DNA of 64,000 nt from a virus (IMGVR_UViG_3300028558_000016:278014-342013), one strand, 5' to 3'. Numbered from the stretch's first letter, positions 33,991 to 56,070 are shown. A program made the numbers and translations. Notes: generated by a model from the sequence alone, not told the origin.

Positions 33991-33993
33991 ATC

Positions 33994-34269: not shown

Positions 34270-34287
34270 CGTAATAAAAACAACAAC

Positions 34288-36081: not shown

Positions 36082-36082
36082 T

Positions 36083-36562: not shown

Positions 36563-36567
36563 TTGAA

Positions 36568-36885
36568 ATGAAGCAAGACGAAGAAGAAGACCAAATCATT
36601 TGTATTTGTTCAAAAGAAAATTCGGCTCATACCATTGGTATAAGAGTTCCATGCCGTGGTCCAGGCTGTAATGCTCAGCTTTGGCTGAGTGACAGCACTA
36701 TTAATAGAATTAAAAAGGAAAAAACGGATGTTGATTTAACGAAAACACCTCCTACCCCATTGTGTATGGATTGTGGATTGAAGGCTTTGAAAAATTCAAA
36801 GGATTTTAAAATAGCTCCACCAACCACCGAACAGATGGAAGAAATATTAAAGGCAATGACAGAAATCGATGCTCAACAAAGATGA
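36568..36885 (+). CDS. Cys-rich zinc-binding protein
   Basis: CICS...CRGPGC...CMDC cysteine clusters. Confidence 0.45.
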   Translation: MKQDEEEDQIICICSKENSAHTIGIRVPCRGPGCNAQLWLSDSTINRIKKEKTDVDLTKTPPTPLCMDCGLKALKNSKDFKIAPPTTEQMEEILKAMTEIDAQQR

Positions 36886-37501
36886 CATAATCAAAGCAGC
36901 AGGAGTCCATCCATTAAAGGTTAAAAACATTTACGTGTTTGGATCTCGGGTATATGGAACCGCAACAGCGGACTCTGACTATGACATCATTGTTGTTGCT
37001 AATTCCATGGATGAAAAGAGAGAAGTTGTTTATAAGGATCTCAATATCCATATTCATACTCCAGATAAATTCATTAGAGATCTCAAACAGCTTGACATGC
37101 ATAACCTCGAGTGCATCTTTGCTCCAGAAGGAGCAAAGATATTGGAAAAAGTAAATTATGTCGATGCTAATTTTAAGATCAATCCAGACCAAATGAAATA
37201 TGCTGCAATGAGCCAATCATTCAACAGGTTTCACACGGCCAAGGTGAAAATTCTCGATGGAGATTTTCACAGAGGAATTAAAAGCTTATTTCATTCATTA
37301 AGGATATTATTGTTTTCGATGCAAATACTTCGTAATGGAAGGATCGATGATTTTTCAGAAGCTAACAAATTTTGGGCCGACATCAAGATAGACATTCAAC
37401 TTACAAAAAATATCACCAACGAGGAAGAGATGTGGAGATATTTCAAAGATAAATATCTTCCACAAAAAATTGAATTAGAAAAACGATTAAAAGAAATGTA
37501 A
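36869..37501 (+). CDS. Minimal nucleotidyltransferase (MNT/KNTase-like) with C-terminal helical domain carrying an Rx6H HEPN-like motif
   Basis: YVFGSRVYGTATADSDYDIIVV is the GS...D.D nucleotidyltransferase motif. RGIKSLFH fits R(x4-6)H. Confidence 0.5.
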   Translation: MLNKDDIIKAAGVHPLKVKNIYVFGSRVYGTATADSDYDIIVVANSMDEKREVVYKDLNIHIHTPDKFIRDLKQLDMHNLECIFAPEGAKILEKVNYVDANFKINPDQMKYAAMSQSFNRFHTAKVKILDGDFHRGIKSLFHSLRILLFSMQILRNGRIDDFSEANKFWADIKIDIQLTKNITNEEEMWRYFKDKYLPQKIELEKRLKEM

Positions 37502-37502
37502 T

Positions 37503-37904: not shown

Positions 37905-37905
37905 A

Positions 37906-42575: not shown

Positions 42576-42658
42576 GCCCATGTGGCGGAATTGGTAGACG
42601 CGCCGGTCTTAGGAACCGGTGCCTTTAAGGCGTGCAGGTTCGAGTCCTGTCATGGGTA
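42576..42658 (+). tRNA. tRNA-Leu (anticodon TAG), class II
   Basis: GCCCATG acceptor, AATTGGTAG D-loop, anticodon loop CTTAGGA, long variable arm, GTTCGAGT T-loop; no encoded CCA. Confidence 0.8.
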
Positions 42659-42739
42659 CAACGTGGTGAAAGTACATTCAGACTGTACCATCAGATTTTA
42701 GCTACTGATGAAGCATTTGTGGTGATGCTGCTGCGAATT

Positions 42740-42826
42740 GGTGAGATGTCCGAGTGGTTTAAGGAGCAACCCTGGAAAGGTTGTATACGGGAAACCGTAT
42801 CGTGGGTTCGAATCCCACTCTCACCG
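42740..42826 (+). tRNA. tRNA-Ser (anticodon GGA), class II
   Basis: GGTGAGA acceptor, 3-bp D-stem with GAGTGGTTTAA loop, anticodon loop CTGGAAA, long variable arm, discriminator G. Confidence 0.8.
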
Positions 42827-42836
42827 CAAATAAAAT

Positions 42837-42920
42837 GGAAGGTTGGTAGAGCGGTCTATTGCACCAGTCTTGAAAACTGGAGATCCTACGGGGTCCGTGA
42901 GTTCGAATCTCACACCTTCC
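42837..42920 (+). tRNA. tRNA-Ser (anticodon TGA), class II
   Basis: GGAAGGT acceptor, D-arm GTA/GAGCGGTCTAT/TGC, anticodon stem CCAGT with loop CTTGAAA; very similar to E. coli tRNA-Ser(UGA). Confidence 0.8.
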
Positions 42921-42926
42921 GCAATT

Positions 42927-43014
42927 GGAGAGCTACTCAAGTTGGTTAAGAGGCGCGTTTGCTAAACGTGTAGGACGAGAAATCGTTGGGTGGGTTCGAA
43001 CCCCACGCTCTCCG
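42927..43014 (+). tRNA. tRNA-Ser (anticodon GCT), class II
   Basis: GGAGAGC acceptor, anticodon loop TTGCTAA, long variable arm, discriminator G. Confidence 0.75.
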
Positions 43015-43025
43015 CAGAAAATTCT

Positions 43026-43108
43026 GCCCCCATGGTGGAATTGGTAGACACGCAGGACTTAAAATCCTGTGCCCTTAGGGCGTACGAGTTCGAGTCTCGT
43101 TGGGGGTA
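43026..43108 (+). tRNA. tRNA-Leu (anticodon TAA), class II
   Basis: GCCCCCA acceptor, anticodon stem CAGGA/TCCTG with loop CTTAAAA, long variable arm. Confidence 0.8.
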
Positions 43109-43115
43109 CATAAAT

Positions 43116-43197
43116 GCCGAGTTGGCGGAATTGGTAGACGCGCTGGTCTCAAACACCAGTGACGAAAGTCGTGTGGGTTCGAGTCCCACACTCGGTA
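43116..43197 (+). tRNA. tRNA-Leu (anticodon CAA), class II
   Basis: GCCGAGT acceptor, anticodon stem CTGGT/ACCAG with loop CTCAAAC, long variable arm. Confidence 0.8.
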
Positions 43198-43213
43198 CAA
43201 GAAGAAGAATAAA

Positions 43214-44677
43214 ATGGAAAATGATAAAAAATATTGCTTGGTGATGTTTCCTTATCCGTCTGGAGATGGATTGCACATTGGACATTGCTACAACTACTTG
43301 ATAGTTGATAGCTATTGTCGTTGGATGAAGAGAAAAGGAATTGAAGTGTTTCAACCATTTGGTTATGACGCTTTCGGTTTGCCTGCGGAGAATTATGCGA
43401 TCAAGCATAACAGAGATCCAAAAGAAGTCACCTATGAAAACATAGAAAATTTCAGAAGGCAGATGAAGAGATTGGATACTAATTATGAAGAGAAGTTAAT
43501 TACAGCTGATCCATCTTATTTCAAATGGACACAATGGTTGTTCACAAAGATGTTGGAGAAGGGAATTGCTTACAAGAAATTTCATCCAGTAAACTTTTGT
43601 CCATCTTGCGCAACAGTGATTGCCAATGAGCAGGTGAAGGAAGGAAAATGTGAGAGATGCAATTCAGTTGTTGAGATGAAAAACTTGAATCAATGGTTCT
43701 TCAGAATAACAGACTACACAGATAGGTTGATCAAGAACTTGCAATGGTTGGATTATCCCGAGAAAACCAAGAAGCAACAATTACATTGGTTGGAGAAGAT
43801 GAAAGAAAACAAGATCGATTGGTGTGTGTCAAGACAGAGAAAATGGGGATGTCCAATTCCTGTTGAAGGAGAGGAAGATACTTTGGACACATTTGTTGAC
43901 AGCTCATTTTACTACTTGAGATTCTTGACGGATTCTGAAGATGAATTCTTGCCAAGAGAAAAATATAAGCAGGTTGATTTGTACGTCGGAGGAAATGAAC
44001 ATGCTTGCATGCATTTGATTTATGCAAGATTTGTGAACATGTTCTTGTATGACTTGGGAATTGTTGAACAAGAAGAACCGTTCAAGAAGTTGATTCATCA
44101 GGGAATGATCAAGATGAATGGAACAAAGATGTCCAAGTCTATCGGCAATGTTGTTAATCCGGATGGGTATGATCCAGATGAATTGAGATTTTACTTGATG
44201 TTCATTGGACATTATTTTGATGGCGGAGATTGGAACGATCAAAACATTGTTGGCATAAGAAAATTCTTTGCACGATGGGATAAGCTTACTTTTAGAGAAG
44301 CAAAGGAAGGAATTGAATCTATGGATTTGACTGAATTTGAAAACCAGATCGATGGTTATGTGAAAGCTTTCAAGTTCAATAAGGTTGTTAGTTCATTCAT
44401 GGAATTTTACAACAATAATAGCAGCAGAAACTTTGACAAGGAAACCAGATTGAAGTTGAGAAGAATGTTGGAGTGTTTTGCGCCAACAAGATTTTCTAAA
44501 GATGAAAGGCCTCCAGTTGGCATGGATGAATTAAGAAGAAAATCCAATGAGTTGTCTGAGAACGTAAACAAGATTGAAGTAATGGTTAATAAAATTTTTA
44601 AAGATGTTGAACAAAAAGAAAATATCACCGGAATATCCGAGAATACCTCACTTGATGGGGAAGTCAAATCTGTATGA
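43214..44677 (+). CDS. leuS: Leucyl-tRNA synthetase-like class I aaRS catalytic core, apparently lacking the CP1 editing and C-terminal domains
   Basis: PYPSGDGLHIGHCYNY (HIGH) and MNGTKMSKSIGN (KMSKS). Only about 265 aa lie between the two motifs and 487 aa in total, against about 860 aa in bacterial LeuRS. Zinc knuckle CPSC...CERC present. Confidence 0.8.
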   Translation: MENDKKYCLVMFPYPSGDGLHIGHCYNYLIVDSYCRWMKRKGIEVFQPFGYDAFGLPAENYAIKHNRDPKEVTYENIENFRRQMKRLDTNYEEKLITADPSYFKWTQWLFTKMLEKGIAYKKFHPVNFCPSCATVIANEQVKEGKCERCNSVVEMKNLNQWFFRITDYTDRLIKNLQWLDYPEKTKKQQLHWLEKMKENKIDWCVSRQRKWGCPIPVEGEEDTLDTFVDSSFYYLRFLTDSEDEFLPREKYKQVDLYVGGNEHACMHLIYARFVNMFLYDLGIVEQEEPFKKLIHQGMIKMNGTKMSKSIGNVVNPDGYDPDELRFYLMFIGHYFDGGDWNDQNIVGIRKFFARWDKLTFREAKEGIESMDLTEFENQIDGYVKAFKFNKVVSSFMEFYNNNSSRNFDKETRLKLRRMLECFAPTRFSKDERPPVGMDELRRKSNELSENVNKIEVMVNKIFKDVEQKENITGISENTSLDGEVKSV

Positions 44678-45308
44678 CGATGACATTGAGATCAATGTTG
44701 AGTTAGGGTTTGATGCCTTTGTACAAGAGAAGGTTGATGGAGCAAACTGTGGAATCAGTTGGTTCGATGGACCCATTCTCAGAAACAGAACCCATGTGTT
44801 AAGAAAGGGATTTGAAAGAGACACTCCAGCAAAGAAACAATTTGTTCCAGCTTGGAATTGGTTGCATGAAAGAGAAGATGACTTGAAGGAGATGATGAAG
44901 AAGTGGAATGGACAGATAACTGTTTATGGAGAGTGGATGCTTGCAAAACATTCTATTGGATATGAGAAGCTTCCAGATTATTTTCTTGCTTATGACATTT
45001 GGTCGTGTGAAGAAAACAAGTTTGTTTCTCCGAAGGAATGCAAGGAACTTTTGAATGGGACTGGCATAAGATGGATCGAAGCAGAAAGAATAAGCATTCA
45101 ATCGTTCTCTGATTTGAAGTCAGTTCTTGATGTTCCCTCTAAGTACAGAGATGGAATTAAAGAAGGAATAGTTATCAAGAAAACTGACGAAGACGATAAG
45201 TGGATAGAGAAGACTTTCAAGGTTGTTAGAAAAGATTTTGAAAGGGCTGATGAAAGCTGGAATAAGAAAAAGCTTGAAAAGAATAAGCTGATAAAGAGGA
45301 GTGCCTGA
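44655..45308 (+). CDS. Minimal ATP-dependent polynucleotide (probably RNA) ligase, nucleotidyltransferase domain only
   Basis: Motif I EKVDGAN (KxDG), motif IV EGIVIKK, motif V KVVRKD. The track ORF starts at 44604 inside leuS; 44655 is the internal ATG. Confidence 0.5.
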   Translation: MGKSNLYDDDIEINVELGFDAFVQEKVDGANCGISWFDGPILRNRTHVLRKGFERDTPAKKQFVPAWNWLHEREDDLKEMMKKWNGQITVYGEWMLAKHSIGYEKLPDYFLAYDIWSCEENKFVSPKECKELLNGTGIRWIEAERISIQSFSDLKSVLDVPSKYRDGIKEGIVIKKTDEDDKWIEKTFKVVRKDFERADESWNKKKLEKNKLIKRSA

Positions 45309-45380
45309 GTGGCTGAAAGGACCGGTCTCGAAAACCGGCACACCCAAAAGGTGTCGTGAGTTCGAATCTCACCTCCTCTG
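45295..45380 (+). tRNA. tRNA-Ser (anticodon CGA), class II
   Basis: AGAGGAG acceptor (A1-U72), D-arm CCT/GAGTGGCTGAA/AGG, anticodon loop CTCGAAA, long variable arm, discriminator G; overlaps the last 14 nt of the ligase ORF. Confidence 0.75.
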
Positions 45381-45419
45381 CATTTTTTAATTTGATGATT
45401 TTTTTGTAAATTCACTATC

Positions 45420-45725
45420 ATGAATGATGAAGATAAAAAAATAAAGGGATCATTGTTTTTCTTGTACATCGGCAAGCTTAAAGAATTGGGTTTGATAGAA
45501 GGTGGCGCAGGAGATTTGACCATGAAAGGTTTTGACATTGCCATTGATGCCTATAACAGTGGACATAGATTGTCAGATGAGGAGATTAGTAATTTTCTCG
45601 AAGCCGCTCCTGGAATGGACGATGACGACACAATAGAGGCAGCATTTGGAATGATAGCCAAGATGCAAGAAATTGGATTTGATGGAATGAAAGAATTGGT
45701 TGAACGAGTAAAGAAAACATTATGA
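45420..45725 (+). CDS. Hypothetical acidic protein
   Basis: ORF with ATGA junction to Sir2. Confidence 0.4.
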   Translation: MNDEDKKIKGSLFFLYIGKLKELGLIEGGAGDLTMKGFDIAIDAYNSGHRLSDEEISNFLEAAPGMDDDDTIEAAFGMIAKMQEIGFDGMKELVERVKKTL

Positions 45726-46432
45726 AAAAGAAATTAGTGGTGTTTAGCGGTGCAGGAGTTTCTGCTGAGAGCGGAATTCCTACATTCAGAGATTCAAATG
45801 GTCTTTGGGAAAACCATAAGATGGAAGATGTTGCTACTCCAGAAGGATGGGAGAAAAACAGAGAGCTTGTTCTCAACTTCTACAATCTTATGAGAACGAA
45901 ACTCAAAGCAGTTGTTCCGAATAAAGCTCACAATATAATTGCAGAGCTTGAAGAACATTTTGAAGTTACAGTCATCACACAAAACATAGATGACTTGCAT
46001 GAGAGAAGCGGCTCAAAGAAGGTCATACATCTTCATGGAGAATTAATGAAGAGCAGAAGCACATTTAATCCAAATCTAAAATACGAGTGTACTGGAAATA
46101 TAAACATAGGTGACAAATGTGAGAAAGGTTCTCAATTGAGGCCTGACATAGTTTGGTTTCATGAAAATGTTTATCACCTTGACACTGCGGCTGAATTGGT
46201 AGAACAGTGCGATATTCTTCTTGTTGTTGGAACTTCATTAAATGTTTGGCCTGCAGCAGGATTGTTATATGTGACGAAACCGGAAACTGAAATATATTGC
46301 ATTGATCCAAAAACAGTTGTTGGAAGTGATATTCAAGTTACTCACATAAAGAAGAAAGCGAGTGAAGGGATGGAGAAATTTAAAAAGATTATTCTCGAGA
46401 AAAAAGATAAGAAAGAAAATTGCTGTTTATAA
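45722..46432 (+). CDS. Sir2-family NAD-dependent protein deacylase / ADP-ribosyltransferase (sirtuin, CobB-like)
   Basis: FSGAGVSAESGIPTFR, TQNIDDLHERSG, catalytic His in IHLHGEL, and VVGTS are canonical sirtuin motifs. Confidence 0.8.
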   Translation: MKKKLVVFSGAGVSAESGIPTFRDSNGLWENHKMEDVATPEGWEKNRELVLNFYNLMRTKLKAVVPNKAHNIIAELEEHFEVTVITQNIDDLHERSGSKKVIHLHGELMKSRSTFNPNLKYECTGNINIGDKCEKGSQLRPDIVWFHENVYHLDTAAELVEQCDILLVVGTSLNVWPAAGLLYVTKPETEIYCIDPKTVVGSDIQVTHIKKKASEGMEKFKKIILEKKDKKENCCL

Positions 46433-46436
46433 TAAT

Positions 46437-46518
46437 GCCCAGGTGTTGGAATTGGTAGACAAGCACGGTTGAGGGCCGTGTGCAGTAATGCGTAGGGGTT
46501 CGAGTCCCCTTCTGGGTA
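46437..46518 (+). tRNA. tRNA-Leu (anticodon GAG), class II
   Basis: GCCCAGG acceptor, anticodon stem CACGG/CCGTG with loop TTGAGGG, long variable arm; the next ORF starts 2 nt after its 3' end. Confidence 0.75.
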
Positions 46519-46519
46519 C

Positions 46520-46732
46520 ATGGAATTAATAGGAAAAAAATTCACAAGAAAAGATAGAACCTTCGTAGAAGATTTGCTCAAGAGCACAACAGTGTACACC
46601 ATAGAAGAATCAAAAAAGAAAGGTGTTTTAGTTGTTAGATGGGATAAGGACGGAGAGTCGGCTCATACAACATGCTCAATAAAAGAAGCTGAAAAAAACG
46701 TGAAGAAGGGAAAATGGGTTTTACAGCCATGA
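46520..46732 (+). CDS. Hypothetical protein
   Basis: ORF immediately after the tRNA. Confidence 0.35.
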   Translation: MELIGKKFTRKDRTFVEDLLKSTTVYTIEESKKKGVLVVRWDKDGESAHTTCSIKEAEKNVKKGKWVLQP

Positions 46733-46911
46733 TTTCGATGGAACCTAAAAATATCTATATTAAGGATAAGAAAGATTTCAGGAGAGTTGAACACCTTCTT
46801 AATGGAAGAGTGTTCTGGAGAGAGAAGAAAGATGACATTAGTAAAGTAGAAATAAAAATAGCATTTCCAAGTAAATACACGAGAAATATTGTTAAATCTT
46901 TAAAAGACTAA
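46714..46911 (+). CDS. Hypothetical protein
   Basis: ORF with overlap. Confidence 0.35.
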   Translation: MGFTAMISMEPKNIYIKDKKDFRRVEHLLNGRVFWREKKDDISKVEIKIAFPSKYTRNIVKSLKD

Positions 46912-46912
46912 A

Positions 46913-47368
46913 ATGGCAAAGATCAGCGAGGAAGATAAAATAGAATTAGAAGAATACACAAGGCTTAGAGATTTTCATCTCTCTGAATATAAAAGATACA
47001 AAGGTTTATTGGAAAATAAAAGGACAAGCACGAAGGTTGTCTATAATCCAACCACCGATGCAGCAAAAGTTTATTGGAAAGAAAAGAAAAAGATGGACTG
47101 TGATGCAGTCTATTCGATCTTGATTAATAAGAAGGAAGAAATAGGAACCGGAGAGCTCTGTGATGTTTTAAACACAAAAATGGAATACATCAACAACAAA
47201 TATGATTCCATGACTTTCGCTGGAATTCTTGGTAAGCATTTAAAGGAGGATGATAGGATATATTGTTATATGGGGCAAGTTAATGGAAGAAGATCCACTA
47301 TATGGGGATTGAATGAATGGAAGAAAACAAATCCATCTGTGATATTAAAATTCAAAAAACCAAAATGA
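46913..47368 (+). CDS. Hypothetical protein
   Basis: ORF; no motif recognised. Confidence 0.4.
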   Translation: MAKISEEDKIELEEYTRLRDFHLSEYKRYKGLLENKRTSTKVVYNPTTDAAKVYWKEKKKMDCDAVYSILINKKEEIGTGELCDVLNTKMEYINNKYDSMTFAGILGKHLKEDDRIYCYMGQVNGRRSTIWGLNEWKKTNPSVILKFKKPK

Positions 47369-47384
47369 CCATGATATATAAATC

Positions 47385-47765
47385 ATGGATTATATTTTCA
47401 CAATAACAGAAACTGACGAAGATAACGTAGATTCTTCATTCGCAGCTCTTCATGGAAGACTTGAACACTGGTTCAACCTCACTCAGAAAACCTATACAAC
47501 TTACAGAATAGCAGATAATGTTCCAACTGTAACAACCGTTCTCGTATGGGAAGAAAACATCGCAAAGATTTACTACTATAAAAACCTTGAGATAAACAGA
47601 CTTGAGCGACAGCTTCTGTTAGAAAAAACAAGGATGCATGAGATAAATTATTTTAAGGCTTACATGAGAATAGGTGCTGATGAAACCAATGCCACGATAG
47701 AGGCACAAATGGCACAGACCAACGCTGATCTAACATATCTGAAAAATTACAATCCTAATTTATGA
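47385..47765 (+). CDS. Hypothetical protein
   Basis: ORF; no motif recognised. Confidence 0.4.
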   Translation: MDYIFTITETDEDNVDSSFAALHGRLEHWFNLTQKTYTTYRIADNVPTVTTVLVWEENIAKIYYYKNLEINRLERQLLLEKTRMHEINYFKAYMRIGADETNATIEAQMAQTNADLTYLKNYNPNL

Positions 47766-47920
47766 CGCACGACGAAGATTGCCCTAATTGTGGTGAGCTT
47801 GTTGAAGTAGAGATTTGGGAAGAGGGAGAATGCCCGAGATGTTCTTCCCGCTATTGGTGGGAAGAAATATTTGATGAAGATGATTACGAGACAACAGATC
47901 CTATTTTAGTTTGGGAATAA
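47762..47920 (+). CDS. Small zinc-ribbon protein (52 aa)
   Basis: MTHDEDCPNCGELV...ECPRCSS; ATGA overlap with the upstream gene; not in the ORF track (under 60 aa). Confidence 0.4.
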   Translation: MTHDEDCPNCGELVEVEIWEEGECPRCSSRYWWEEIFDEDDYETTDPILVWE

Positions 47921-47965
47921 TATTGATTTTTTTTACTATATTAGCTAATAATCAACTGAAAACCC

Positions 47966-48448
47966 ATGGAGCGTAATTACGTGTTATTCATATTCAATAA
48001 TTCTAAGGATGAATTCCTTAAGGAACCAAAAGAACTTAAAATACTACAGCAAGTAACGGTAGGAGATATTAGAGGAGCAAGCTGTGGTCCAATCAACATG
48101 TGTTTCTTTCCAAGTGAACACAGCAAAGAAGAAATTTCCGATTTGTTAGTAAAAGATGGAATTCATTTTCTTCTTGTGGATGATCAAGATTCTGAACATT
48201 CATACCCAAAACACATTCGTAGCATGTTATCCGGAAAAATGGATCACACCGCTGTCAGAAAGATAGAAATAGGTGGTGGAATGGAAATTACTGAACCAAA
48301 GAAATTATCATTGGAAGATCAACTCAAAGAAGCTTTAAAAGAAGACGATTTTGAGTTGGCCGCAGTATTACGTGACAAAATAGCCAAAGCAAAATCCCCA
48401 GAACCTAAGACAGGAAAGGGCTCAACCCTAAGGCAACTTTTTGATTAA
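47966..48448 (+). CDS. Hypothetical protein with C-terminal UVR-like motif
   Basis: LSLEDQLKEALKEDDFELAAVLRDKIAKAK; paralogous to the C-terminus of ORF 32785. Confidence 0.4.
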   Translation: MERNYVLFIFNNSKDEFLKEPKELKILQQVTVGDIRGASCGPINMCFFPSEHSKEEISDLLVKDGIHFLLVDDQDSEHSYPKHIRSMLSGKMDHTAVRKIEIGGGMEITEPKKLSLEDQLKEALKEDDFELAAVLRDKIAKAKSPEPKTGKGSTLRQLFD

Positions 48449-48481
48449 AATCTTTTTAATTTTAATTGATTTTTAGTATAT

Positions 48482-49225
48482 TTGTTCTCTGTGATAGAGA
48501 TAAAATGTATATTAAAATACGATCCTGTTCCATTATCTGGAAAAGCAGAAACCATGTGCAAACCTTGGTGGATGATCGCAACATGCGAAGGAGATCTCAC
48601 TGAATATTATGCATGGCTTCTTAAAAAACGAACAGGATTAATTCTCCAACGCCCTGCATGGGGCGCACATATCTCAGTCATAAGAGGAGAAGAACCACCC
48701 AACAAAGAATTATGGAAAAAATACCAGGACAAAGAAGTCACTTTGCTCTATGATCCAAACGTCAGAACAAATGGAGATCATTGGTGGATGAGAGTCCATT
48801 GCAACGAACTTCTTGACATAAGAGAAGAATTAGGTCTTCCAAGATTTGGAGCATTAACTTTACACCTCACGTTAGGAAGACCAATCCCAAGACACGAAGA
48901 AGCATCAGATTATTTCCATACAGTTTTTAAATCATTCGCTCCATCGGCGCCAATAAGACCATACATGACACAAGAAGAAGCTTTAAAGAATTTGTCTTTG
49001 CCTCCAATGGAAGTAAAGCATAAAGAATTAAAAACACCTGAACATTCAGACTCTATGTTCAGAAAGGAATGTCCAAACTGTGAGACTGGATTATTGATGA
49101 TGAAAAGAAATCAGTCAACGCTCGCTCTTGAAAAAGATGATAATTGCACTTATTGTGGAAGACGATTCACTTACACTGACATAAAAGAAAACTCAGTAAT
49201 ATTAGAATATAATGAAAAAGCTTGA
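48482..49225 (+). CDS. 2H-superfamily phosphoesterase (LigT/CPDase-like) with C-terminal zinc ribbon
   Basis: Two H-x-(S/T) motifs (AHISVIRG and LHLTLGRP) plus C-terminal CPNC...CTYCG. Confidence 0.5.
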   Translation: MFSVIEIKCILKYDPVPLSGKAETMCKPWWMIATCEGDLTEYYAWLLKKRTGLILQRPAWGAHISVIRGEEPPNKELWKKYQDKEVTLLYDPNVRTNGDHWWMRVHCNELLDIREELGLPRFGALTLHLTLGRPIPRHEEASDYFHTVFKSFAPSAPIRPYMTQEEALKNLSLPPMEVKHKELKTPEHSDSMFRKECPNCETGLLMMKRNQSTLALEKDDNCTYCGRRFTYTDIKENSVILEYNEKA

Positions 49226-49586
49226 AACAAAAGATATAGAAAAAAATGGTGTAGCAGTGGAAAATTACGAAGGGGTATTATCTTACATCTGTGAAGACGT
49301 TAATCGTAGTATAAGACTTACTACTTTCCTCAAAGACGAACTATCATCCATTTTTGGTACACACAACACAAAATACAAAGGTGACGAGTATAATTTTCAC
49401 GTATGGATAATTGAGTTCGAACAAGAAATATTTCAGATTTTCACAGCTAATGGTAAAGGAACTTGTTTCTCTATTGTGGATCCAACATTCTCGTTCGATG
49501 ATGATGGACAACCGGACGGTAAATCTGACGTATGTTTAAGATTCCTAAAAGACATGGACATGAAACTTCAAAAGCTAATAAAATGA
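49212..49586 (+). CDS. Hypothetical protein
   Basis: ORF; no motif recognised. Confidence 0.4.
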   Translation: MKKLETKDIEKNGVAVENYEGVLSYICEDVNRSIRLTTFLKDELSSIFGTHNTKYKGDEYNFHVWIIEFEQEIFQIFTANGKGTCFSIVDPTFSFDDDGQPDGKSDVCLRFLKDMDMKLQKLIK

Positions 49587-49587
49587 A

Positions 49588-50535
49588 ATGAAAGAAATAA
49601 TATTACCGGTAGGACTTCCTGCAGCAGGAAAATCCACAATAGTAAATGATTACGTCAGCCAGGGGTTTGCTAAACTTTCGAGAGATGAAATTGGAGGAGG
49701 TCTTGAAGTAGACGGAAAAGTAAATACAAAACTCAAGGATTGGATCCGAATGGGCAAGGAACAAATAATAATGGATGCTACTTACATGACTAAGGAAGTT
49801 AGGAAGCATGTTATAGACATTGCGAAGAAGAATGGATATAAAGTAACATGCGTTCACATTGCAACATCAATAGAAGATTCTCAATTTAATGCAGTTTCGA
49901 GAATGATCAACAGGCATGGAAAACTATTTCAACACGCAGACGATTATACCAAGGCAAAAGATCCTAACATGTTTCCAGTTGCTGCCTTATACAAAGCGAA
50001 TAAAATAATCGAAAAGCCAACCATGTCAGAAGGATTCGACGAGGTTAAAATAGTTCCTTTCAAAAGGAAATTAAACGGCTACACAAACAAAGCAATATTA
50101 TTTGATTATGATGGAACACTAAGACAGACTAAAAATGCCGATTCATTATATCCAACAGATCCAAGCGACATTGAAATTCTTCCTGGGAGAACTGAAAAGA
50201 TCAATGAATTGAAAAAAGAAGGTTACATCATACTCGGTGTTTCAAATCAAAGTGGTGTTGCTAAAGGAGTATTGACTTACGAAATGGCCGATAAGTGTTT
50301 CAAGAAAACAAATGAGCTTTTAGGTGTTGACATCGATTACAGATTTTGTTCTCACAAGGTTCCACCTATCACATGTTATTGCAGAAAACCAGGAGTTGGA
50401 TTTGGGGTTGAGTTCATCGAGAAATATAAATTGGATCCATCACAATGTATCATGGTTGGAGATATGAAATCCGATGAGACCTTCGCAAAGAGATGTGGTT
50501 TTAAATTTGTTCACGTAGATAAATTCTTTAAATGA
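49588..50535 (+). CDS. pnk: Polynucleotide 5'-kinase / 3'-phosphatase (T4 Pnk-like)
   Basis: N-terminal P-loop VGLPAAGKST and C-terminal HAD motif ILFDYDGTL (DxDGT); same domain order as T4 Pnk. Confidence 0.7.
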   Translation: MKEIILPVGLPAAGKSTIVNDYVSQGFAKLSRDEIGGGLEVDGKVNTKLKDWIRMGKEQIIMDATYMTKEVRKHVIDIAKKNGYKVTCVHIATSIEDSQFNAVSRMINRHGKLFQHADDYTKAKDPNMFPVAALYKANKIIEKPTMSEGFDEVKIVPFKRKLNGYTNKAILFDYDGTLRQTKNADSLYPTDPSDIEILPGRTEKINELKKEGYIILGVSNQSGVAKGVLTYEMADKCFKKTNELLGVDIDYRFCSHKVPPITCYCRKPGVGFGVEFIEKYKLDPSQCIMVGDMKSDETFAKRCGFKFVHVDKFFK

Positions 50536-50687
50536 AGAAGAGCGATGAAGAAAAAATCAAAGACTTAAACTATGCTATAAAAGTATTTGAGAAAGCTTTA
50601 AAGGATGGAGGTTCTCCTGAAGCAGTTGAATGGGGAAAAAAATATCTCGAAAAGTTAAAGAAGAAAAAATTAAAACTAAAAAAATAA
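50532..50687 (+). CDS. Small Lys-rich protein (51 aa)
   Basis: ATGA overlap with the pnk stop; not in the track (under 60 aa). Confidence 0.25.
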   Translation: MKKSDEEKIKDLNYAIKVFEKALKDGGSPEAVEWGKKYLEKLKKKKLKLKK

Positions 50688-50693
50688 ATTATT

Positions 50694-51044
50694 ATGACAG
50701 AAGTTTTAGACAAATACGTGAAGTTCCTATGGGAACGTTTCATGGCAGACATGGATGTGCTAACGAATGTTTGGATGTACATTCCGCTTTTAATACCATT
50801 CATCTTCTACATGATATTCTTTGTCATCAAATGGTGGATCCTTCTTTTTCCAATAACCCTGCCTATAAGCATATTGAAAGGATTCTTCAGTGTAAAAATA
50901 AGAAATCAAAATGGAGTTTCCACTAAAAGTGAAATATTAAAAGAGATGAGCGATGACCTTGAAGATGTGGGTGTTCACCCAGACAAAAGTTACAAGGTCA
51001 TCATGGAATGGAAGAAGAAATTCAGGATAGCTCGAAAAGATTAA
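50694..51044 (+). CDS. Membrane protein
   Basis: Two long hydrophobic helices; preferred over the overlapping ORF 50630..50926. Confidence 0.4.
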   Translation: MTEVLDKYVKFLWERFMADMDVLTNVWMYIPLLIPFIFYMIFFVIKWWILLFPITLPISILKGFFSVKIRNQNGVSTKSEILKEMSDDLEDVGVHPDKSYKVIMEWKKKFRIARKD

Positions 51045-51523
51045 AGCTTCTTTGTTATGACATGGTCTTCTATGTCCTCAAAGTTATCGTTGAACTTAAT
51101 TCTTTTCTTCTTAAGATATTCCTTGACAGATCCTATTCGTGTAAATCCCTCTCGGTAATAAAAACTGAGAGGTTTTCCTTCTTTATTTACGTATGAATTT
51201 ATTTTCTTGCATCCGGCTTCCTTAGCAATCGAACACAGAAATTTCATAACTTCTTTTCCTTCTCCTTTATTTCTGTGTTGTGGAAGAATACCGAGCCAAC
51301 CGAGCCAAAGCTCTTTTGTGTCAAAATCGAGAGAATATAAACCACATACTCCTATGGTTTCTTTCTTATCATTCTTGATCAACCAAACCTCCCAAAATTT
51401 TCCATCATCCACACATTTGCACCACATCTTCATAGTTTCTTTGAAGGACTCTCCAAAGTCAGCCATAAGTCCTGTAGTCAAACATTTGTACTGTCTGATA
51501 TTTCTTGACTGAATAAATTTCAT
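51041..51523 (-). CDS. GNAT-family N-acetyltransferase
   Basis: WLGWLGILPQHRNKGEGKEVM is the Q/RxxGxG/A acetyl-CoA motif. Confidence 0.6.
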   Translation of the reverse strand: MKFIQSRNIRQYKCLTTGLMADFGESFKETMKMWCKCVDDGKFWEVWLIKNDKKETIGVCGLYSLDFDTKELWLGWLGILPQHRNKGEGKEVMKFLCSIAKEAGCKKINSYVNKEGKPLSFYYREGFTRIGSVKEYLKKKRIKFNDNFEDIEDHVITKKL

Positions 51524-51525
51524 TG

Positions 51526-52266
51526 TTAACTTTGTTTAAAGTACCTAAATAGATGCGCAGACATAACATAGGTAATAGCAAGTCCGATTCCGATAATGGT
51601 GAAAGACTTATCTATTCCTGCGTCGCCATTAACAAATATATTAAAATCGTACAAACCGTGATAAAAAGTTGCCGCACAAATACCAGCAAAAGTATGACAC
51701 ATCATCCTGAAACGTGGGTGAATTGATGATAGCATGTTCTTAGGCGAATCGTTGTCAATTCTGCCGAGGGCTACGAAGTATCCGAGCATCAAACCACAAA
51801 TCATGTGAACTAAGACTGAACTGAAAGATCTGATAAGAAGAACATCGCCCCCATAGATCTGGGCGTAAAGAATATTTTCAGAAACAGCAAAACCACAAGA
51901 AATAGACATCGCATAAAACATTATTGATGAAGGGTGATCAACCATCTTTTTGTTTCTGTACCAATCAGTGAGTTTGAACATCGAGAATTTGCTCATCTCT
52001 TCAAGAGCACCAACCTTGACGAATGCCGTCGCAAAAAGCGCAATCATCATGTTCTTGCTCATTGGTTCATCCCAATTTGGGAACATGTAGTGAACTGCAT
52101 TTACGAGTATCGTTGATAGAACTCCCATGCAAAAATAAAGTGATGCGGTTCTCCATCTAATTGTAAATGGTGGTGCTGTGATGTAAACTATTATAGAGTA
52201 AATCAAAGCTGGAAGGAACGTGAAAATAAATGAGATCACGTTGTTGTCGTCAAACATTGAATGCAT
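51526..52266 (-). CDS. PrsW-like intramembrane metalloprotease
   Basis: ALEEMSKF (EExxK), GFAVSENILY (FxxxEN) and HGLYDFN (HxxxD/N) lie on predicted TM helices. Confidence 0.5.
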   Translation of the reverse strand: MHSMFDDNNVISFIFTFLPALIYSIIVYITAPPFTIRWRTASLYFCMGVLSTILVNAVHYMFPNWDEPMSKNMMIALFATAFVKVGALEEMSKFSMFKLTDWYRNKKMVDHPSSIMFYAMSISCGFAVSENILYAQIYGGDVLLIRSFSSVLVHMICGLMLGYFVALGRIDNDSPKNMLSSIHPRFRMMCHTFAGICAATFYHGLYDFNIFVNGDAGIDKSFTIIGIGLAITYVMSAHLFRYFKQS

Positions 52267-52339
52267 GGAAAATAAACCTTTATTTTATATATTCAAAATG
52301 ATTTTATTGATTATATGTATTATTTCCAAGACGTTGTAA

Positions 52340-52360
52340 CTTATTGATAATCAATAGATT
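52340..52360. promoter_or_regulatory. Palindromic operator-like site TTGATAATCAA
   Basis: tgtaacttattgataatcaatagatt shares 22 nt with the site at 22674. Confidence 0.5.
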
Positions 52361-52390
52361 GCTTCGATCATTTTCCATCTATAATTTTAA

Positions 52391-52409
52391 CCTATTGATA
52401 ATCAAGCAG
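52391..52409. promoter_or_regulatory. Palindromic operator-like site TTGATAATCAA
   Basis: cctattgataatcaagcag is the inverted copy of the site at 25243. Confidence 0.5.
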
Positions 52410-52461
52410 TTACAAAATTGTTATTAAATATTGATGAAATTATTTTTCCATGTCACAAATA

Positions 52462-52475
52462 GTTAGTAAATTTAC
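52462..52475 (+). promoter_or_regulatory. Promoter, gTTAGTAaATTTAC class
   Basis: Motif copy 45 nt upstream of ATG 52520. Confidence 0.5.
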
Positions 52476-52519
52476 TATATCAAATTAATCATTTAATTAT
52501 AAACTCTAAAAACAAAAAA

Positions 52520-53167
52520 ATGTCAACAACTAAAAAACCAGGAGCCGGATTATTAGGCTTAGCGAAAAAAACAGTAAAAACAACTGCTGCTAAAAAAGAC
52601 AACAAAGAAGTAATTACAGTTTCGGATAAAACCGTTTCTGATGCAATTGACACTTATATTAAAAACAAAAAGATCGCCGACGAAGCTGCCGCTGCAATGG
52701 CTGCCGCTTCTGAAATCGTGAAAAGCGAAGGTGGTAAAAAAATCTTCATCGAAGAAATGGAGAAAACCGGTCGCTCAAAAGAATCATTCATTCTTGCCAG
52801 CCAAAATGGAAACAGCTTAATGTATGTTGTTACCGACGCTTACAAACGCGCAAACTTGGATGAAGAACGTGTTGAGTACTTACGCAAAATGTTTGGCGAA
52901 GAAATCATCACAGACAAAAACGAATTCATCGTTAATCCTGAATTAATCGATGAGCATGGTGAAACACTTTGCGAATTAATTAAAAATTGTCCTAAGTTTA
53001 CCGATGAGGTTAAAGAAAGCCTTATCCAATTGAAACAATCGTTCACAATTGCAAAAGGAACTAAAGATAAAATGCGCGACATCGCAAAAGCTTCCAATAC
53101 AACTGTTGAAACAGTGTTTGAAGAAGTTCAACCAACATGTCAAGTGAAAGTTCGCGGTTCAAAATAA
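52520..53167 (+). CDS. Hypothetical protein with basic Lys/Ala-rich N-terminus
   Basis: ORF; N-terminal KKPGAGLLGLAKKTVKTTAAKK. Confidence 0.45.
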   Translation: MSTTKKPGAGLLGLAKKTVKTTAAKKDNKEVITVSDKTVSDAIDTYIKNKKIADEAAAAMAAASEIVKSEGGKKIFIEEMEKTGRSKESFILASQNGNSLMYVVTDAYKRANLDEERVEYLRKMFGEEIITDKNEFIVNPELIDEHGETLCELIKNCPKFTDEVKESLIQLKQSFTIAKGTKDKMRDIAKASNTTVETVFEEVQPTCQVKVRGSK

Positions 53168-53751
53168 TCCGCGGAATTTCCAAAATCAAGGGAAGGTTCG
53201 CCATGGACCTTCCCTTTTTTTATTTCACAAAACTAAAAATGATAAAAATGAATAACGAAATTGAAAAAGAAGCAACAAAAGAAGCACTCATTGATGGATT
53301 ATACAATGCATGTGAGGATGTTTGCAAGACACTCACCATTGATGAAATCATGGAAACCATAGAGGAATCCAAAAAAAGAATTAAAGATCACCTGCTGTTA
53401 CTCCCATATAGCAAGAAGGAACAAACTCCATATCTTGATTGGGCTTTTGAGGATTTTGGTTACAGAGGAGGAATTACCGCTGAGGTTATTGACAAGCTTG
53501 CTCCGCACACAATTATCGCAAAAGGAGAAATTGAAAATTCCGAAAAAGGATTATTCATGGTAAATTCCAATATTGGAAAAAAATTATTGTGGGTGGCGAA
53601 AAAAGGTGGTGGAGATGATTGGGCCATTTACACTTTTTGGGCAGAAAAAGGTATTGATTATGTTCTGAAACATGGGGATAAAGTTAGCAAATACAATGTG
53701 CACAAACTTGTTCCTGTCGATGACGAAGCATTGAAAATGTATAGAAGTTAA
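53137..53751 (+). CDS. Hypothetical protein
   Basis: ORF overlapping the upstream gene end. Confidence 0.4.
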   Translation: MSSESSRFKIIRGISKIKGRFAMDLPFFYFTKLKMIKMNNEIEKEATKEALIDGLYNACEDVCKTLTIDEIMETIEESKKRIKDHLLLLPYSKKEQTPYLDWAFEDFGYRGGITAEVIDKLAPHTIIAKGEIENSEKGLFMVNSNIGKKLLWVAKKGGGDDWAIYTFWAEKGIDYVLKHGDKVSKYNVHKLVPVDDEALKMYRS

Positions 53752-53826
53752 ATCCGTAGTATGGTGCGTGGGGGAAAGCCCCCGACTCGTGTTATCATTT
53801 TCACGGTTTGAAACATACGGATAGTA

Positions 53827-53856
53827 AAACGGCCTCAATGAGGCCGTTTTTATTTT
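53827..53856 (+). terminator. Rho-independent terminator
   Basis: ACGGCCTCaatGAGGCCGTttttatttt. Confidence 0.7.
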
Positions 53857-53869
53857 ACATGAAAAGTTA
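53856..53869 (+). promoter_or_regulatory. Promoter, gTTAGTAcATTTAC class
   Basis: Motif copy 32 nt upstream of ATG 53901, directly after the terminator. Confidence 0.5.
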
Positions 53870-53900
53870 GTACATTTACCTGAAATCAAAAGATAACAAA

Positions 53901-54176
53901 ATGGCAACTATCATTAAAGCTGACGGCTCAGAAGAAAATCTTGTTTTGGAAAAAACAACCTCATTGAAAACATTGCAAAAAGCAGTTGGAGGTTATATCG
54001 AACTTTTACATACCAAAGATGGAAGATACATGCTCTGCAATGAAGATGGAAAAAGCATGAACCTTTCTCCAAACGAAAAAGCCACAGAGTTATGGGCTGG
54101 GCAAAACGAGATAATTCTCGGAGATGTTGTTGTCTGTGATAGAATTGAACTTGATAAAGGAGAAGGAGATGAATGA
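53901..54176 (+). CDS. Hypothetical protein
   Basis: ORF; no motif recognised. Confidence 0.4.
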   Translation: MATIIKADGSEENLVLEKTTSLKTLQKAVGGYIELLHTKDGRYMLCNEDGKSMNLSPNEKATELWAGQNEIILGDVVVCDRIELDKGEGDE

Positions 54177-54531
54177 AGAATTGACCATAAAGGAAACAAT
54201 CGTTTATGACGTTGACAAACAAAATGCAAGTGTTGTAGCTGGAGAAAAACCGAGGTCGTGGACAACATGGGAAGGCAGACGATTGACTGTTGACCAAATT
54301 GACCACCAACATTTGTCAAACATATATTGGTTCAATGTGCTATTGTATAACAGAGTTTATTTGTTCATTGTTGAAGAACTTCAAAAAAGATTTAATTCAG
54401 TTCTTCTTCCATACAGACCGGATGTCAGATTTGACAACGAGATAAGAAGCCTTGATAAAAAAGGATTCTTATATGAGGGCGGAAGGTTGATCATGTATAA
54501 CGGAGTTGTTATAGGAGAAATTAAAAAATAG
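54169..54531 (+). CDS. Hypothetical protein
   Basis: Internal ATG 54169 preceded by AAGGAG; overlaps the upstream stop by 8 nt. Confidence 0.4.
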   Translation: MNEELTIKETIVYDVDKQNASVVAGEKPRSWTTWEGRRLTVDQIDHQHLSNIYWFNVLLYNRVYLFIVEELQKRFNSVLLPYRPDVRFDNEIRSLDKKGFLYEGGRLIMYNGVVIGEIKK

Positions 54532-54535
54532 TAAA

Positions 54536-55051
54536 ATGGAAAACACATTGGTTCAATTTAATGTTAACGATCACGTTCTTGTGAAACTTCTCGATGATGG
54601 AATTATTGCTTTCATCAAACACTACAATCAATATGCTTTAAAGAAAGAAGACAAGTTGACCATCACTGAATTTGTAAAGAGAGCCGACAAGGATGGATAT
54701 TATGAAATTCAAATGCATGAATTCATGTCAGTGTTTGGAGAGCATGTTTCTAATACAATGGATTTTAGATACTTCGAGCCGAACATTTATTTCAACAAGA
54801 AAGACCTTCATCAAAAAGAAGTGAAAGCTGTTGAAGGATGGAGCGCCCAGAATTATCACGGATTTCAAGTTGATCTTCCCGATGGATATTATGAAGGAGT
54901 TTGGGGTGGCGGAGAAGTTGATATTATCAATTTGAATATTAAAGGAAGAGAATCAACTTATACATTCAAAACTTCCGTTGAAGTAAAATGTACCAATTGT
55001 CCAGTGAAAGTGACAGTCGTTAATAAAAGAGCTTACGTATACGAACCTTAA
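54536..55051 (+). CDS. Hypothetical protein
   Basis: ORF; no motif recognised. Confidence 0.4.
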   Translation: MENTLVQFNVNDHVLVKLLDDGIIAFIKHYNQYALKKEDKLTITEFVKRADKDGYYEIQMHEFMSVFGEHVSNTMDFRYFEPNIYFNKKDLHQKEVKAVEGWSAQNYHGFQVDLPDGYYEGVWGGGEVDIINLNIKGRESTYTFKTSVEVKCTNCPVKVTVVNKRAYVYEP

Positions 55052-55060
55052 AACAAGAAT

Positions 55061-55327
55061 ATGAACAAATGCTTATGTGATGGAAAAGGATGGATTAGAA
55101 TGCCTGGAACAAAGGCCCTGATTTATTGCCCTGACTGTGAAAAGCCAAGGATCCTCAAAAGAATGATAAAATCTGGAACCAAGATAGTAAGCCCTGTGTT
55201 TGGTACAGGAGAAGTGGTGGAAGATGGAAAGGCGGCAAAAAAGACCATAAAAGTGAGGTTTTCCAAGCAGGATAAAGATATTGACCTGGATAGGACAGAG
55301 GTGGCCTACGTCTATGACCAGGCTTGA
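55061..55327 (+). CDS. Small zinc-finger protein
   Basis: CLCDGKG...CPDCEKP cysteine pairs. Confidence 0.4.
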   Translation: MNKCLCDGKGWIRMPGTKALIYCPDCEKPRILKRMIKSGTKIVSPVFGTGEVVEDGKAAKKTIKVRFSKQDKDIDLDRTEVAYVYDQA

Positions 55328-55356
55328 CTTCCGGGCATTTTTTTATGTGGATAAAA

Positions 55357-55370
55357 GTTAGTATATTTGT
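55357..55370 (+). promoter_or_regulatory. Promoter, gTTAGTATATTTGt class (exact TAnnTTTG)
   Basis: Motif copy 20 nt upstream of ATG 55390. Confidence 0.5.
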
Positions 55371-55389
55371 AGTATAAAACCAACCAGAT

Positions 55390-56070
55390 ATGATACAGTA
55401 TAATGAGTTCAGATACATTTTTCCACCACGTGCGGAAAATGCTCTTTCACCTGATGCGTTGAAAGATTACGATAACGGAAAATATATTGCCCAACCAAAA
55501 CTTGATGGCGATTGCATGTTGATATTCACAAATGGAATAGAGACACGCATTATGGATCGTCACAAAAAAGAATTCTTGAAGAACATCAAGATGACTCCAA
55601 CACTTCAAAAGCTTCACAGAGAAACTGACAATGGAACAAAAAATAAATGGATGATCCTTGTTGGTGAGCACATGATCAAATCAAAAAAGAATGCCGAAGG
55701 TAAAACATGGAATGAGAAGTATGTTATTTTTGACATCATTGCTTTTGATGGAATTCAGTTAGTAGGCAAAACATTTCAGGAGAGACAAGAACTTCTCGAT
55801 AAGCTTTTTGGAAAAGAAGAAGTTGCATTGACAAAAACTGGAACATATAAGGATAAATTCCTTTATGCAACGGAAATTGAAGACGTGTTTCGCGTTAAAT
55901 CATTCCGTGATTGTTTTTCTGCTCTTTGGAGCGATTTGACAAAGATTGACATGTACGAAGGTCTCGTTATAAAAAGAGCCGATGCAAAACTTGAAAATGG
56001 AAGCACACAAAAGAACAACATAAATTCACAATTAAAATTCAGAAAGGCCACTTTAAATTATCCACATTAA
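55390..56070 (+). CDS. Minimal ATP-dependent polynucleotide ligase (nucleotidyltransferase domain only)
   Basis: Motif I AQPKLDGDCML (KxDG) and motif IV YEGLVIKRADAK. Confidence 0.5.
   Translation: MIQYNEFRYIFPPRAENALSPDALKDYDNGKYIAQPKLDGDCMLIFTNGIETRIMDRHKKEFLKNIKMTPTLQKLHRETDNGTKNKWMILVGEHMIKSKKNAEGKTWNEKYVIFDIIAFDGIQLVGKTFQERQELLDKLFGKEEVALTKTGTYKDKFLYATEIEDVFRVKSFRDCFSALWSDLTKIDMYEGLVIKRADAKLENGSTQKNNINSQLKFRKATLNYPH

Follow-up and report, generated by a model that had tools for sequence, protein, structure and literature searches.

A putative jumbo-phage-type RNA repair set with one RNA-type and one DNA-type stand-alone ligase domain in a huge phage genome

We analysed a stretch of viral DNA of 64,000 nucleotides (nt), one strand (IMGVR_UViG_3300028558_000016:278014-342013; hereafter the window), which probably carries an RNA repair set of the type published for jumbo phages. 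Judged by sequence, the set would consist of a bifunctional 5'-kinase/3'-phosphatase (Pnkp), a stand-alone nucleotidyltransferase (NTase) domain of the RNA ligase type (Lig1), a 2H phosphoesterase, RlaP and a class II tRNA nucleotidyltransferase (the CCA-type enzyme). A first-pass annotation had proposed a wider RNA repair toolkit, with a second small ligase (Lig2) and a Tpt1-like step, as a possible counter-measure to tRNA-cleaving immunity. Of that toolkit, Pnkp and Lig1, in and around a cluster of leucine and serine tRNA genes, are retained together with the 2H and CCA-type enzymes, whereas Lig2 and the Tpt1 step are not. In the scheme that we propose, cleavage of tRNA or other RNA by host ribonucleases would produce ends with a 2',3'-cyclic phosphate and a 5'-OH. 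Pnkp would phosphorylate the 5' end and take off the 3' phosphate, the 2H enzyme, encoded adjacent to Pnkp, would open cyclic phosphates (perhaps acting with Pnkp), the RlaP and CCA-type nucleotidyltransferases would put back lost nucleotides, and Lig1 would seal the 3'-OH/5'-PO4 break with ATP via lysyl-AMP on K43. We infer all of these catalytic steps from family membership.

Lig1 (44604..45308, plus strand) encodes a 234-residue protein of the PF09414 (Rnl2/3/5) superfamily, which it matches well above threshold (3e-27, 96.3 bits against a cut-off of 27); its PHROG matches are RNA ligase families (best 2.4e-14). The protein displays motifs I (EKVDGAN, with K43), III (YGEW), IV (EGIVIK, residues 187-192) and V (FKVVR). 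Ninety-five homologues were found, each of about 230 residues, and in 39 aligned sequences K43, E110, D131, E187/G188/K192 and K206 (motifs I, III, IIIa, IV and V) are invariant. The gene had been placed at 44655; we assign the start to the ATG at 44604, because the 17 residues so added hold the family-invariant P9 and H16 and the nearly invariant R13. Apart from this start, the description of two ligases of roughly 230 residues with KxDG and EGxVxK motifs holds for both proteins.

Single-sequence searches of the PDB with Lig1 and Lig2 returned noise only, and family profiles were used instead. The Lig1 profile retrieved the Aquifex ligase 3qwu (1.8e-5), the Rnl5 enzyme NgrRnl (2.4e-5) and archaeal Rnl3 members (4e-3 to 7e-3); T4 Rnl2 was not retrieved at E values up to 10. 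With 38 residues ahead of motif I and about 25 behind motif V, Lig1 comprises the NTase domain only. The C-terminal domain of Rnl2 is absent, the alignment covering positions 33-249 of the 341-position phrog_548 profile, as is the N-terminal domain of Rnl5, the match to NgrRnl being limited to NgrRnl residues 217-334. Lig1 runs 14 nt into tRNA-Ser(cga) (45295-45308), its stop codon and the four codons ahead of it reaching into the 5' acceptor stem, and 5'-end cleavage of this tRNA from a shared transcript would cut away the ligase stop codon.

The genomic context of Lig1 and its homologues supports a role in RNA repair. Within the window the gene sits inside the tRNA cluster, between a gene for a LeuRS-like protein and tRNA-Ser(cga), with Pnkp 4.3 kb downstream. 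Among the comparison loci from other phage genomes, labelled L004-L017, L017 carries a 38%-identical Lig1 homologue in an operon of HAD_SAK_2, His_Phos_1, the ligase, an unknown gene and an AAA_33 kinase. A 51%-identical homologue lies among aminoacyl-tRNA synthetase genes, a Pol-beta NTase and IF3, and another adjoins a metallophosphoesterase gene, with genes for DNA polymerase III alpha a few kb away. The Lig1 homologue of L011 was not used as evidence: it is 80% identical, but contains a 72-nt inverted segment (3623-3694). This segment creates a stop codon and destroys motif III, and may reflect either a misassembly or a true inactivation of the gene.

Pnkp (49588..50535, plus strand) shows a predicted 5'-kinase (residues 1-160) followed by a 3'-phosphatase of the HAD-IIIA type (residues 167-315), which is the domain order of the T4 enzyme. 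Both motifs expected of a T4-type enzyme, a P-loop (GLPAAGKST, residues 9-17) and DxDGT (FDYDGTL, residues 172-178), are present, in agreement with the first reading of this gene. Pfam assigns AAA_33 (7e-8, residues 5-98) and PNK3P (9.9e-11, residues 169-302), and NCBIfam the HAD-IIIA model (1.3e-24). Alignment with pseT of the T4-like phage PM2 gave 30% identity over residues 1-242 (the kinase and the start of the phosphatase), with G9, P11, G14, K15, S16, R32-D33 and D173/D175/T177 conserved.

The 2H gene (48482..49225, plus strand) encodes a compact 2H phosphoesterase domain (residues 1-135) with a C-terminal zinc-ribbon extension (CxxC...CxxC). Its two HxS/T motifs are H63-I-S and H128-L-T, with both histidines invariant in 31 homologues. 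The protein matches phrog_12204 (8.9e-33) and has homologues in many jumbo phages; 20 of the 31 match PF22547, the 2H domain of 'Swiss Army Knife' (SAK) RNA repair proteins, at E < 0.01 (best 5.5e-6). The family profile gave no match in the PDB, and a literature search on SAK/2H phrases found nothing. Between 2H and Pnkp lies an open reading frame (ORF) of 124 codons (49212..49586, plus strand), which overlaps the end of 2H by 14 nt, ends one base before the Pnkp start codon and has no Pfam or PHROG match. A close relative (L011/L012) has the same succession of 2H, small ORF and Pnkp, its 2H protein sharing 66% and its Pnkp 85% identity with those of the window; the small ORF at the same place shares no detectable similarity with that of the window. 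Salmonella phage Munch has a 2H homologue 2 kb away from a gene annotated as RNA ligase; a homologue of the CCA-type enzyme lies at a distance of about 4 kb.

Related loci also indicate which of these genes travel together. The close relative L011/L012 has the order tRNAs, LeuRS-like gene, Lig1, Sir2, then, further on, 2H, small ORF, Pnkp, GNAT and PrsW. L013 and L014 represent one natural deletion arrangement in two independent samples. In the syntenic region read there, the LeuRS-like gene and Sir2 are missing, as is every tRNA-Leu gene, and only remnants are left of Lig1 (residues 54-109, without motif I; L013 5689-5952) and of Pnkp (residues 213-315; L013 9098-9406). 2H, PrsW and Lig2 are intact. 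The joint decay of Lig1 and Pnkp, with Lig2 and 2H preserved, fits a reading in which Lig1 and Pnkp would form one dispensable module, and Lig2 and 2H would not depend on it.

Enzymes that would restore lost nucleotides are encoded at three places. The CCA-type enzyme (29315..30472, plus strand) contains the PolyA_pol Pol-beta head domain (PF01743, 1.1e-32) and matches the tRNA nucleotidyltransferase family phrog_2244 (1.5e-51). The NCBIfam scores for the CCA model (147.8 against a cut-off of 290) and for PcnB (160.3 against 305.65) are both below their cut-offs, so that a CCA-adding enzyme and a poly(A) polymerase are indistinguishable by curated thresholds; the earlier name of CCA-adding enzyme thus keeps its head domain and PHROG match but not its precise function. 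Two RlaP genes, not listed previously, both exceed the PF10127 cut-off of 23 bits. The larger (18773..19903, minus strand) matches this family at 3.2e-18 (66.8 bits) and phrog_388 at 2.2e-41, and the second, a smaller RlaP-like Pol-beta nucleotidyltransferase (36869..37501, plus strand), matches NTP_transf_2 at 6e-9 and RlaP at 4.3e-6 (27 bits).

All eight tRNA genes that ARAGORN detects in the window are Leu or Ser, as the class II set described in the first-pass annotation would have it, and Rfam confirms six of the eight at gathering score. Six lie together on the plus strand at 42576..43198 (Leu-tag, Ser-gga, Ser-tga, Ser-gct, Leu-taa and Leu-caa), followed by tRNA-Ser(cga) at 45295-45381 and tRNA-Leu(gag) at 46437-46519. 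None of the eight encodes its 3' CCA. Comparable clusters, whose identifiable tRNAs are all Leu or Ser (class II, with a long variable arm), also occur in L006 (642-2922), L011 (953-1961 and 5830-5912) and L013 (5407-5681). Inside the L006 cluster, ARAGORN reports a tRNA with a four-base anticodon (taaa, 2553-2641), which could be frameshift-suppressor-like or a miscall. The LeuRS-like protein (43214-44677, plus strand; 487 residues) has HIGH and KMSKS motifs and matches TIGR00396 with 401 bits in four stretches, below the cut-off. It is about half the length of bacterial LeuRS, and the editing and C-terminal tRNA-binding domains are apparently absent. Three tRNA-Leu genes directly precede its gene, which at the 3' end shares 74 nt with the start of Lig1.

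Lig2 (55390..56070, plus strand) appears to be a different kind of enzyme from Lig1, namely an adenylyltransferase domain of the DNA ligase type. The 226-residue stand-alone NTase carries motifs I-V, including PKLDGD (K37) and EGLVIK (residues 190-195), and all catalytic motifs are invariant among its homologues. It matches PF01068 (DNA ligase) above threshold at 4.6e-12 and PF01331 (capping enzyme) at 5.3e-11, and its NCBIfam matches are to non-homologous end joining and DNA ligase models. The AlphaFold model is a single domain with a pLDDT of 94.7, and the top 50 Foldseek matches are all ATP-dependent DNA ligases. In fold comparison, ATP-dependent DNA ligases scored 14-17.7, Snurportin 15 and capping enzymes about 11, and the RNA ligases REL1 10.8, Rnl2 10.7, Rnl3 10.3, NgrRnl 10.0 and Rnl1 8.2. 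Hence neither in sequence nor in fold is Lig2 closer to RNA ligases than to DNA ligases. The two small ligases thus part company: by hidden Markov models, Lig1 falls with the PF09414 RNA ligases, but Lig2, by models and predicted structure, with the DNA ligase type. Profiles and predicted fold suggest that Lig2 most likely acts on DNA or hybrid nicks, and that it should be treated as a DNA-ligase-type enzyme rather than as a second RNA ligase.

The protein stops eight residues past motif V, so the OB domain with motif VI is absent; none of its 53 homologues exceeds 250 residues, all being too short for an OB domain. A partner is possibly supplied in trans. No conserved OB partner gene was found near Lig2 in the window or its relatives, and our literature search found nothing on OB-less ligases. 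The ORF at 56070-56537 was considered as a separately encoded OB domain and rejected, since it has no Pfam or PHROG match and, of the relatives L013, L006, L004 and L016, is kept in the close one, L013, alone. Another gene, orf52520 (52520-53167, plus strand), belongs to a family of 215-240 residues with no recognisable domain and no similarity in Pfam, PHROG or PDB searches. Its homologues lie directly upstream of Lig2 in L006 (5203-5925) and L015 (6211-6930), and it stands a few genes off in the window and in L013 (11062-11736); from this placement, its product may be a functional partner of Lig2. The order tRNA(Leu/Ser) cluster, 2H, PrsW, orf52520 homologue, Lig2 is retained in L006, where Lig2 is 54% identical. 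More distant Lig2 homologues (L004 and L016) are found among unrelated genes, without tRNAs and without the orf52520 partner gene. In L015, an NAD+-dependent DNA ligase is encoded 1.3 kb from the Lig2 homologue; a tblastn search with this ligase gave no huge-phage record among the matches listed, the best 15 of 922. The same locus has, about 7 kb from the Lig2 homologue (1-370, minus strand), a PF09414 RNA ligase with a weak match to an intein-splicing domain. The window itself encodes a 5'-3' exonuclease, 4.6 kb downstream of Lig2.

A Tpt1-like step had been proposed for a stand-alone protein of 120 residues (23476..23838, plus strand). Its assignment to the ADP-ribosyltransferase (ART) fold is upheld by a model with a pLDDT of 96.7, which in structure matches the NAD+ lobe of Tpt1 best. 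The protein has no Pfam, NCBIfam or PHROG match. An exhaustive search gave 29 homologues, mostly stand-alone, with YHGT and GPGxCLT in common (YHGT ... GPGICLT in the window protein). Compared with the PDB, the family profile has Tpt1 as its two best matches, aligned at YHGT, at E values of 0.16-0.19, which are not significant, and none of 28 members matches the Tpt1/KptA family in Pfam at E values up to 1. The catalytic tetrad of Tpt1 is Arg-His-Arg-Arg, with three of the four residues in the N-terminal RNA lobe. Because the 120-residue protein starts at the YHGT strand (YHGT begins at residue 3), it lacks this lobe and with it those three residues. No conserved arginine is present in the family alignment at the fourth position, ahead of the GPGxCLT strand, and, in our own reading of the alignment, the position of the usual ART catalytic glutamate is not conserved across the family. 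Alignment and model thus indicate that this protein is not Tpt1 and cannot alone remove a 2'-phosphate; we would expect it to bind NAD+ or ADP-ribose, or to transfer to some other acceptor. A split Tpt1 was also considered and rejected, as the 79-residue upstream ORF (23235-23474) contains, by eye only, nothing like the R-H motif region of the Tpt1 N-lobe.

As membership in Tpt1 fails, the proposed link between RNA repair and NAD+ metabolism through a Tpt1-like step is unsupported. A Sir2-family NAD+-dependent enzyme (45722..46432, plus strand), previously unlisted, is encoded downstream of Lig1 between tRNA-Ser(cga) and tRNA-Leu(gag); it matches PF02146 at 2.8e-45 and an NCBIfam deacylase model at 1e-60, the latter below the cut-off. 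Sirtuin-centred phage RNA repair neighbourhoods, parallel to those with KptA, have been proposed (Iyer et al., 2022; PMC9503650 section 3.7.3). If an NAD+ link to RNA repair exists, the Sir2 gene beside Lig1 seems at least as plausible a candidate as the 120-residue ART-fold protein. A dense NAD+/ADP-ribose island occupies 25340-40031 on the plus strand, with a PARP catalytic-domain protein (25340-26788), an NMNAT-like fusion (31097-32488), two Nudix proteins (33145-33990 and 38390-38845), NAMPT (34288-36081), an NYN RNase (36083-36562) and NADAR (39345-40031). Of these, the NMNAT-like fusion, both Nudix proteins, NAMPT, the NYN RNase and NADAR had been missed in the first-pass annotation.

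Judging from protein matches, the window belongs to a huge phage whose genome measures at least 482 kb and is kin to "uncultured phage" genomes of 595-735 kb. An identical Lig2 protein was found on a 482-kb metagenomic contig. Both small ligases were matched at 44-46% identity in LR745206 (635 kb) and LR756502 (642 kb), Lig2 only in LR756501 (735 kb; 40% identity), and small-ligase matches at 24-36% identity were obtained in LR756511 (595 kb), all four being huge-phage genomes of Al-Shayeb et al. (2020). A megablast search of positions 43000-56500 against the phage collection gave no match, and relatives of this region appear to be detectable at the protein level only. A relation to Mahaphage-type genomes, and the host and clade of the window, we infer from such matches. 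The window would contain an accessory island for translation and NAD+ metabolism, with the predicted RNA repair set inside it. A promoter scan found 55 promoter-like sites, not above shuffles (48.5 ± 6.4). Strong terminator-like hairpins at 53188 and 53826 divide the Lig2 block from the Lig1-2H-Pnkp block. Between the Pnkp and Lig2 blocks stands a minus-strand pair of genes, side by side, for a GNAT acetyltransferase and a PrsW-family intramembrane protease (51041-52266); L011 and L013 keep both genes at this place, L006 only PrsW. At the far end of the window, three successive large ORFs (463, 745 and 674 residues; 1287-6950, plus strand) contain many collagen triple-helix repeats (Pfam Collagen, to 2e-63) and presumably encode virion fibre proteins.

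Several observations weigh against a coordinated repair set. The genes form no conserved cluster and occupy both strands across some 37 kb (18.8-56 kb). Only four of about 25 ORFs in 44655-56070 are members, and the region is not an operon. In LR745206 and LR756502, 75-82 kb separate the homologues of Lig1 from those of Lig2, and the search for Pnkp gave no homologue there at an E value of 1e-5 or better. The 2H enzyme itself matches PF22547 at 8e-4 (20.1 bits), below the gathering score of 27, so the 2H call keeps its two motifs but not a Pfam assignment above threshold. The CCA-type enzyme is equally well explained by maturation of the phage's own tRNAs, because none of their genes encodes CCA. 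For T4 Pnkp we take the kinase catalytic aspartate to be D35 and the substrate-binding arginines to be R38 and R126; as aligned, the position equivalent to Arg38 is not conserved and is glycine in the window protein. Pnkp does have an RxxxR segment (SRMINRHGK), which MAFFT did not align to the pseT motif, overall identity being 31%. In every characterised RNA ligase family, moreover, a flanking domain is required for overall sealing, and its deletion abolishes overall nick sealing and leaves step 3 alone (PMC4408790). Full ligase activity of Lig1, which lacks such a domain, is accordingly an assumption of the scheme. Finally, relatives keep Lig2 in synteny with the tRNA cluster, with 2H and with PrsW, and an RNA role for Lig2 is therefore possible.

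These points bear on several other readings. One holds that there is no coordinated system, only independent accessory genes: the CCA-type enzyme and the LeuRS-like protein would mature and charge the phage's own tRNAs, and Pnkp, Lig1 and Lig2 would serve general nucleic-acid end processing, DNA repair or replication included. T4-type Pnkp does act on DNA ends too, the genes are dispersed with a linkage that differs among relatives, no window tRNA gene encodes CCA, and one Lig1 homologue lies by a metallophosphoesterase gene near those for DNA polymerase III alpha. However, Lig1 homologues recur beside end-healing enzymes and translation genes, the adjacency of 2H and Pnkp is conserved, Lig1 and Pnkp decayed together in L013/L014, and two RlaP genes are present; we regard independent genes as a fairly unlikely explanation, and the repair set as the probable one. 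It is doubtful, in turn, that Lig1 and Lig2 are stand-alone NTase ligases that carry out all three steps without a flanking domain, or with it in trans, Lig2 perhaps joining RNA or hybrids or acting as a 5'-adenylylating enzyme. Somewhat more doubtful still is the proposal that Lig2 is a new RNA- or hybrid-joining, or 5'-adenylylating, enzyme derived from a DNA-ligase-type NTase, which would work with 2H and the class II tRNA cluster and for which the orf52520-family protein may stand in for the OB domain. The gene order from tRNA cluster to Lig2 kept in L006 at only 54% Lig2 identity, the orf52520 family directly upstream in L006 and L015, the persistence of Lig2 where Lig1 decayed and the invariance of all its catalytic motifs would suit this proposal. 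Synteny among kin may nevertheless reflect common descent, neither tRNAs nor the partner gene occur in L004 and L016, no domain can be recognised in the orf52520 family, and the fold is clearly nearer to DNA ligases.

The first-pass model itself now appears very improbable. According to it, both small ligases would be RNA repair ligases for different breaks, and the 2H enzyme would make a 2'-phosphate that the ART-fold protein removes with NAD+, coupling repair to the salvage island. In its favour, jumbo phages frequently carry several non-redundant RNA ligases, and some carry KptA; NAMPT, NMNAT, Nudix, NADAR, PARP and Sir2 genes are all in the window, and relatives keep the tRNA cluster and 2H in synteny with Lig2. 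Against this, the fold and profiles of Lig2 are of the DNA ligase type, the ART-fold protein has neither the Tpt1 RNA lobe nor a conserved fourth arginine, no Pfam Tpt1/KptA match was obtained among the 28 family members, and the upstream ORF is, by eye, unlike the R-H region of the Tpt1 N-lobe. Our analysis corrects the annotation on these points: of the two ligase domains, one is RNA-type and the other DNA-type, there is no Tpt1, and a pair of RlaP genes had been missed.

The prototype of phage RNA repair is T4 Pnkp with Rnl1 against PrrC. The jumbo-phage repertoire was described by Iyer, Anantharaman, Krishnan, Burroughs and Aravind (2021, PMC7824862 section 3.4.9; 2022, PMC9503650 section 3.7.3), and the window shares with it tRNAs, an ATP-dependent RNA ligase, a kinase-HAD fusion, 2H, RlaP and CCA-type enzymes, together with NAD+ salvage and ADP-ribose-processing genes in the same genome. 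It differs in that its genes are scattered with no operon, in that RtcB, a true KptA/Tpt1 and a Macro domain were not found among the window ORFs scanned, and in that its ligase is neither Rnl1 nor a full-length Rnl2 but a bare NTase domain. Earlier work on jumbo phages has already set out the concept of tRNAs combined with Rnl, Pnk-HAD, 2H, a CCA enzyme and an NAD+ link (Iyer et al., 2021, 2022; Al-Shayeb et al., 2020), and ligation of cleaved tRNAs has been noted for this huge-phage group.

Compared with Tpt1/KptA, of about 180 residues, the 120-residue protein shares the ART fold opening with the YHGT strand, but lacks the RNA lobe, the Arg-His-Arg-Arg tetrad and a significant profile match. 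The window 2H enzyme shares with 2H-SAK and LigT (ThpR) proteins the two HxS/T motifs at compact-2H spacing, with a family-level match to PF22547; unlike 2H-SAK it is a stand-alone domain of about 135 residues, not part of a multidomain SAK protein, and has a zinc-ribbon tail in the window lineage. The unusual part is the two stand-alone NTase proteins only, which, if active alone, would be of interest to ligase enzymologists and of possible use as very small ligases. Lig1 has the PF09414 NTase and motifs I, III, IIIa, IV and V in common with Rnl5 (NgrRnl, DraRnl/DRB0094), Rnl3 (Pab1020, MthRnl) and Rnl2 (T4 gp24.1), but not the Rnl5 N-terminal domain, the Rnl2 C-terminal domain or the Rnl3 flanking modules. 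Similarly, the Chlorella virus ligase, the Lig E type and the LigD ligase domain keep the OB domain with motif VI that Lig2 does without. Lig1 and Lig2 thereby point to two widespread families of bare NTase domains, which resemble the "ancestral stand-alone NTase" postulated for the ligase/capping-enzyme superfamily.

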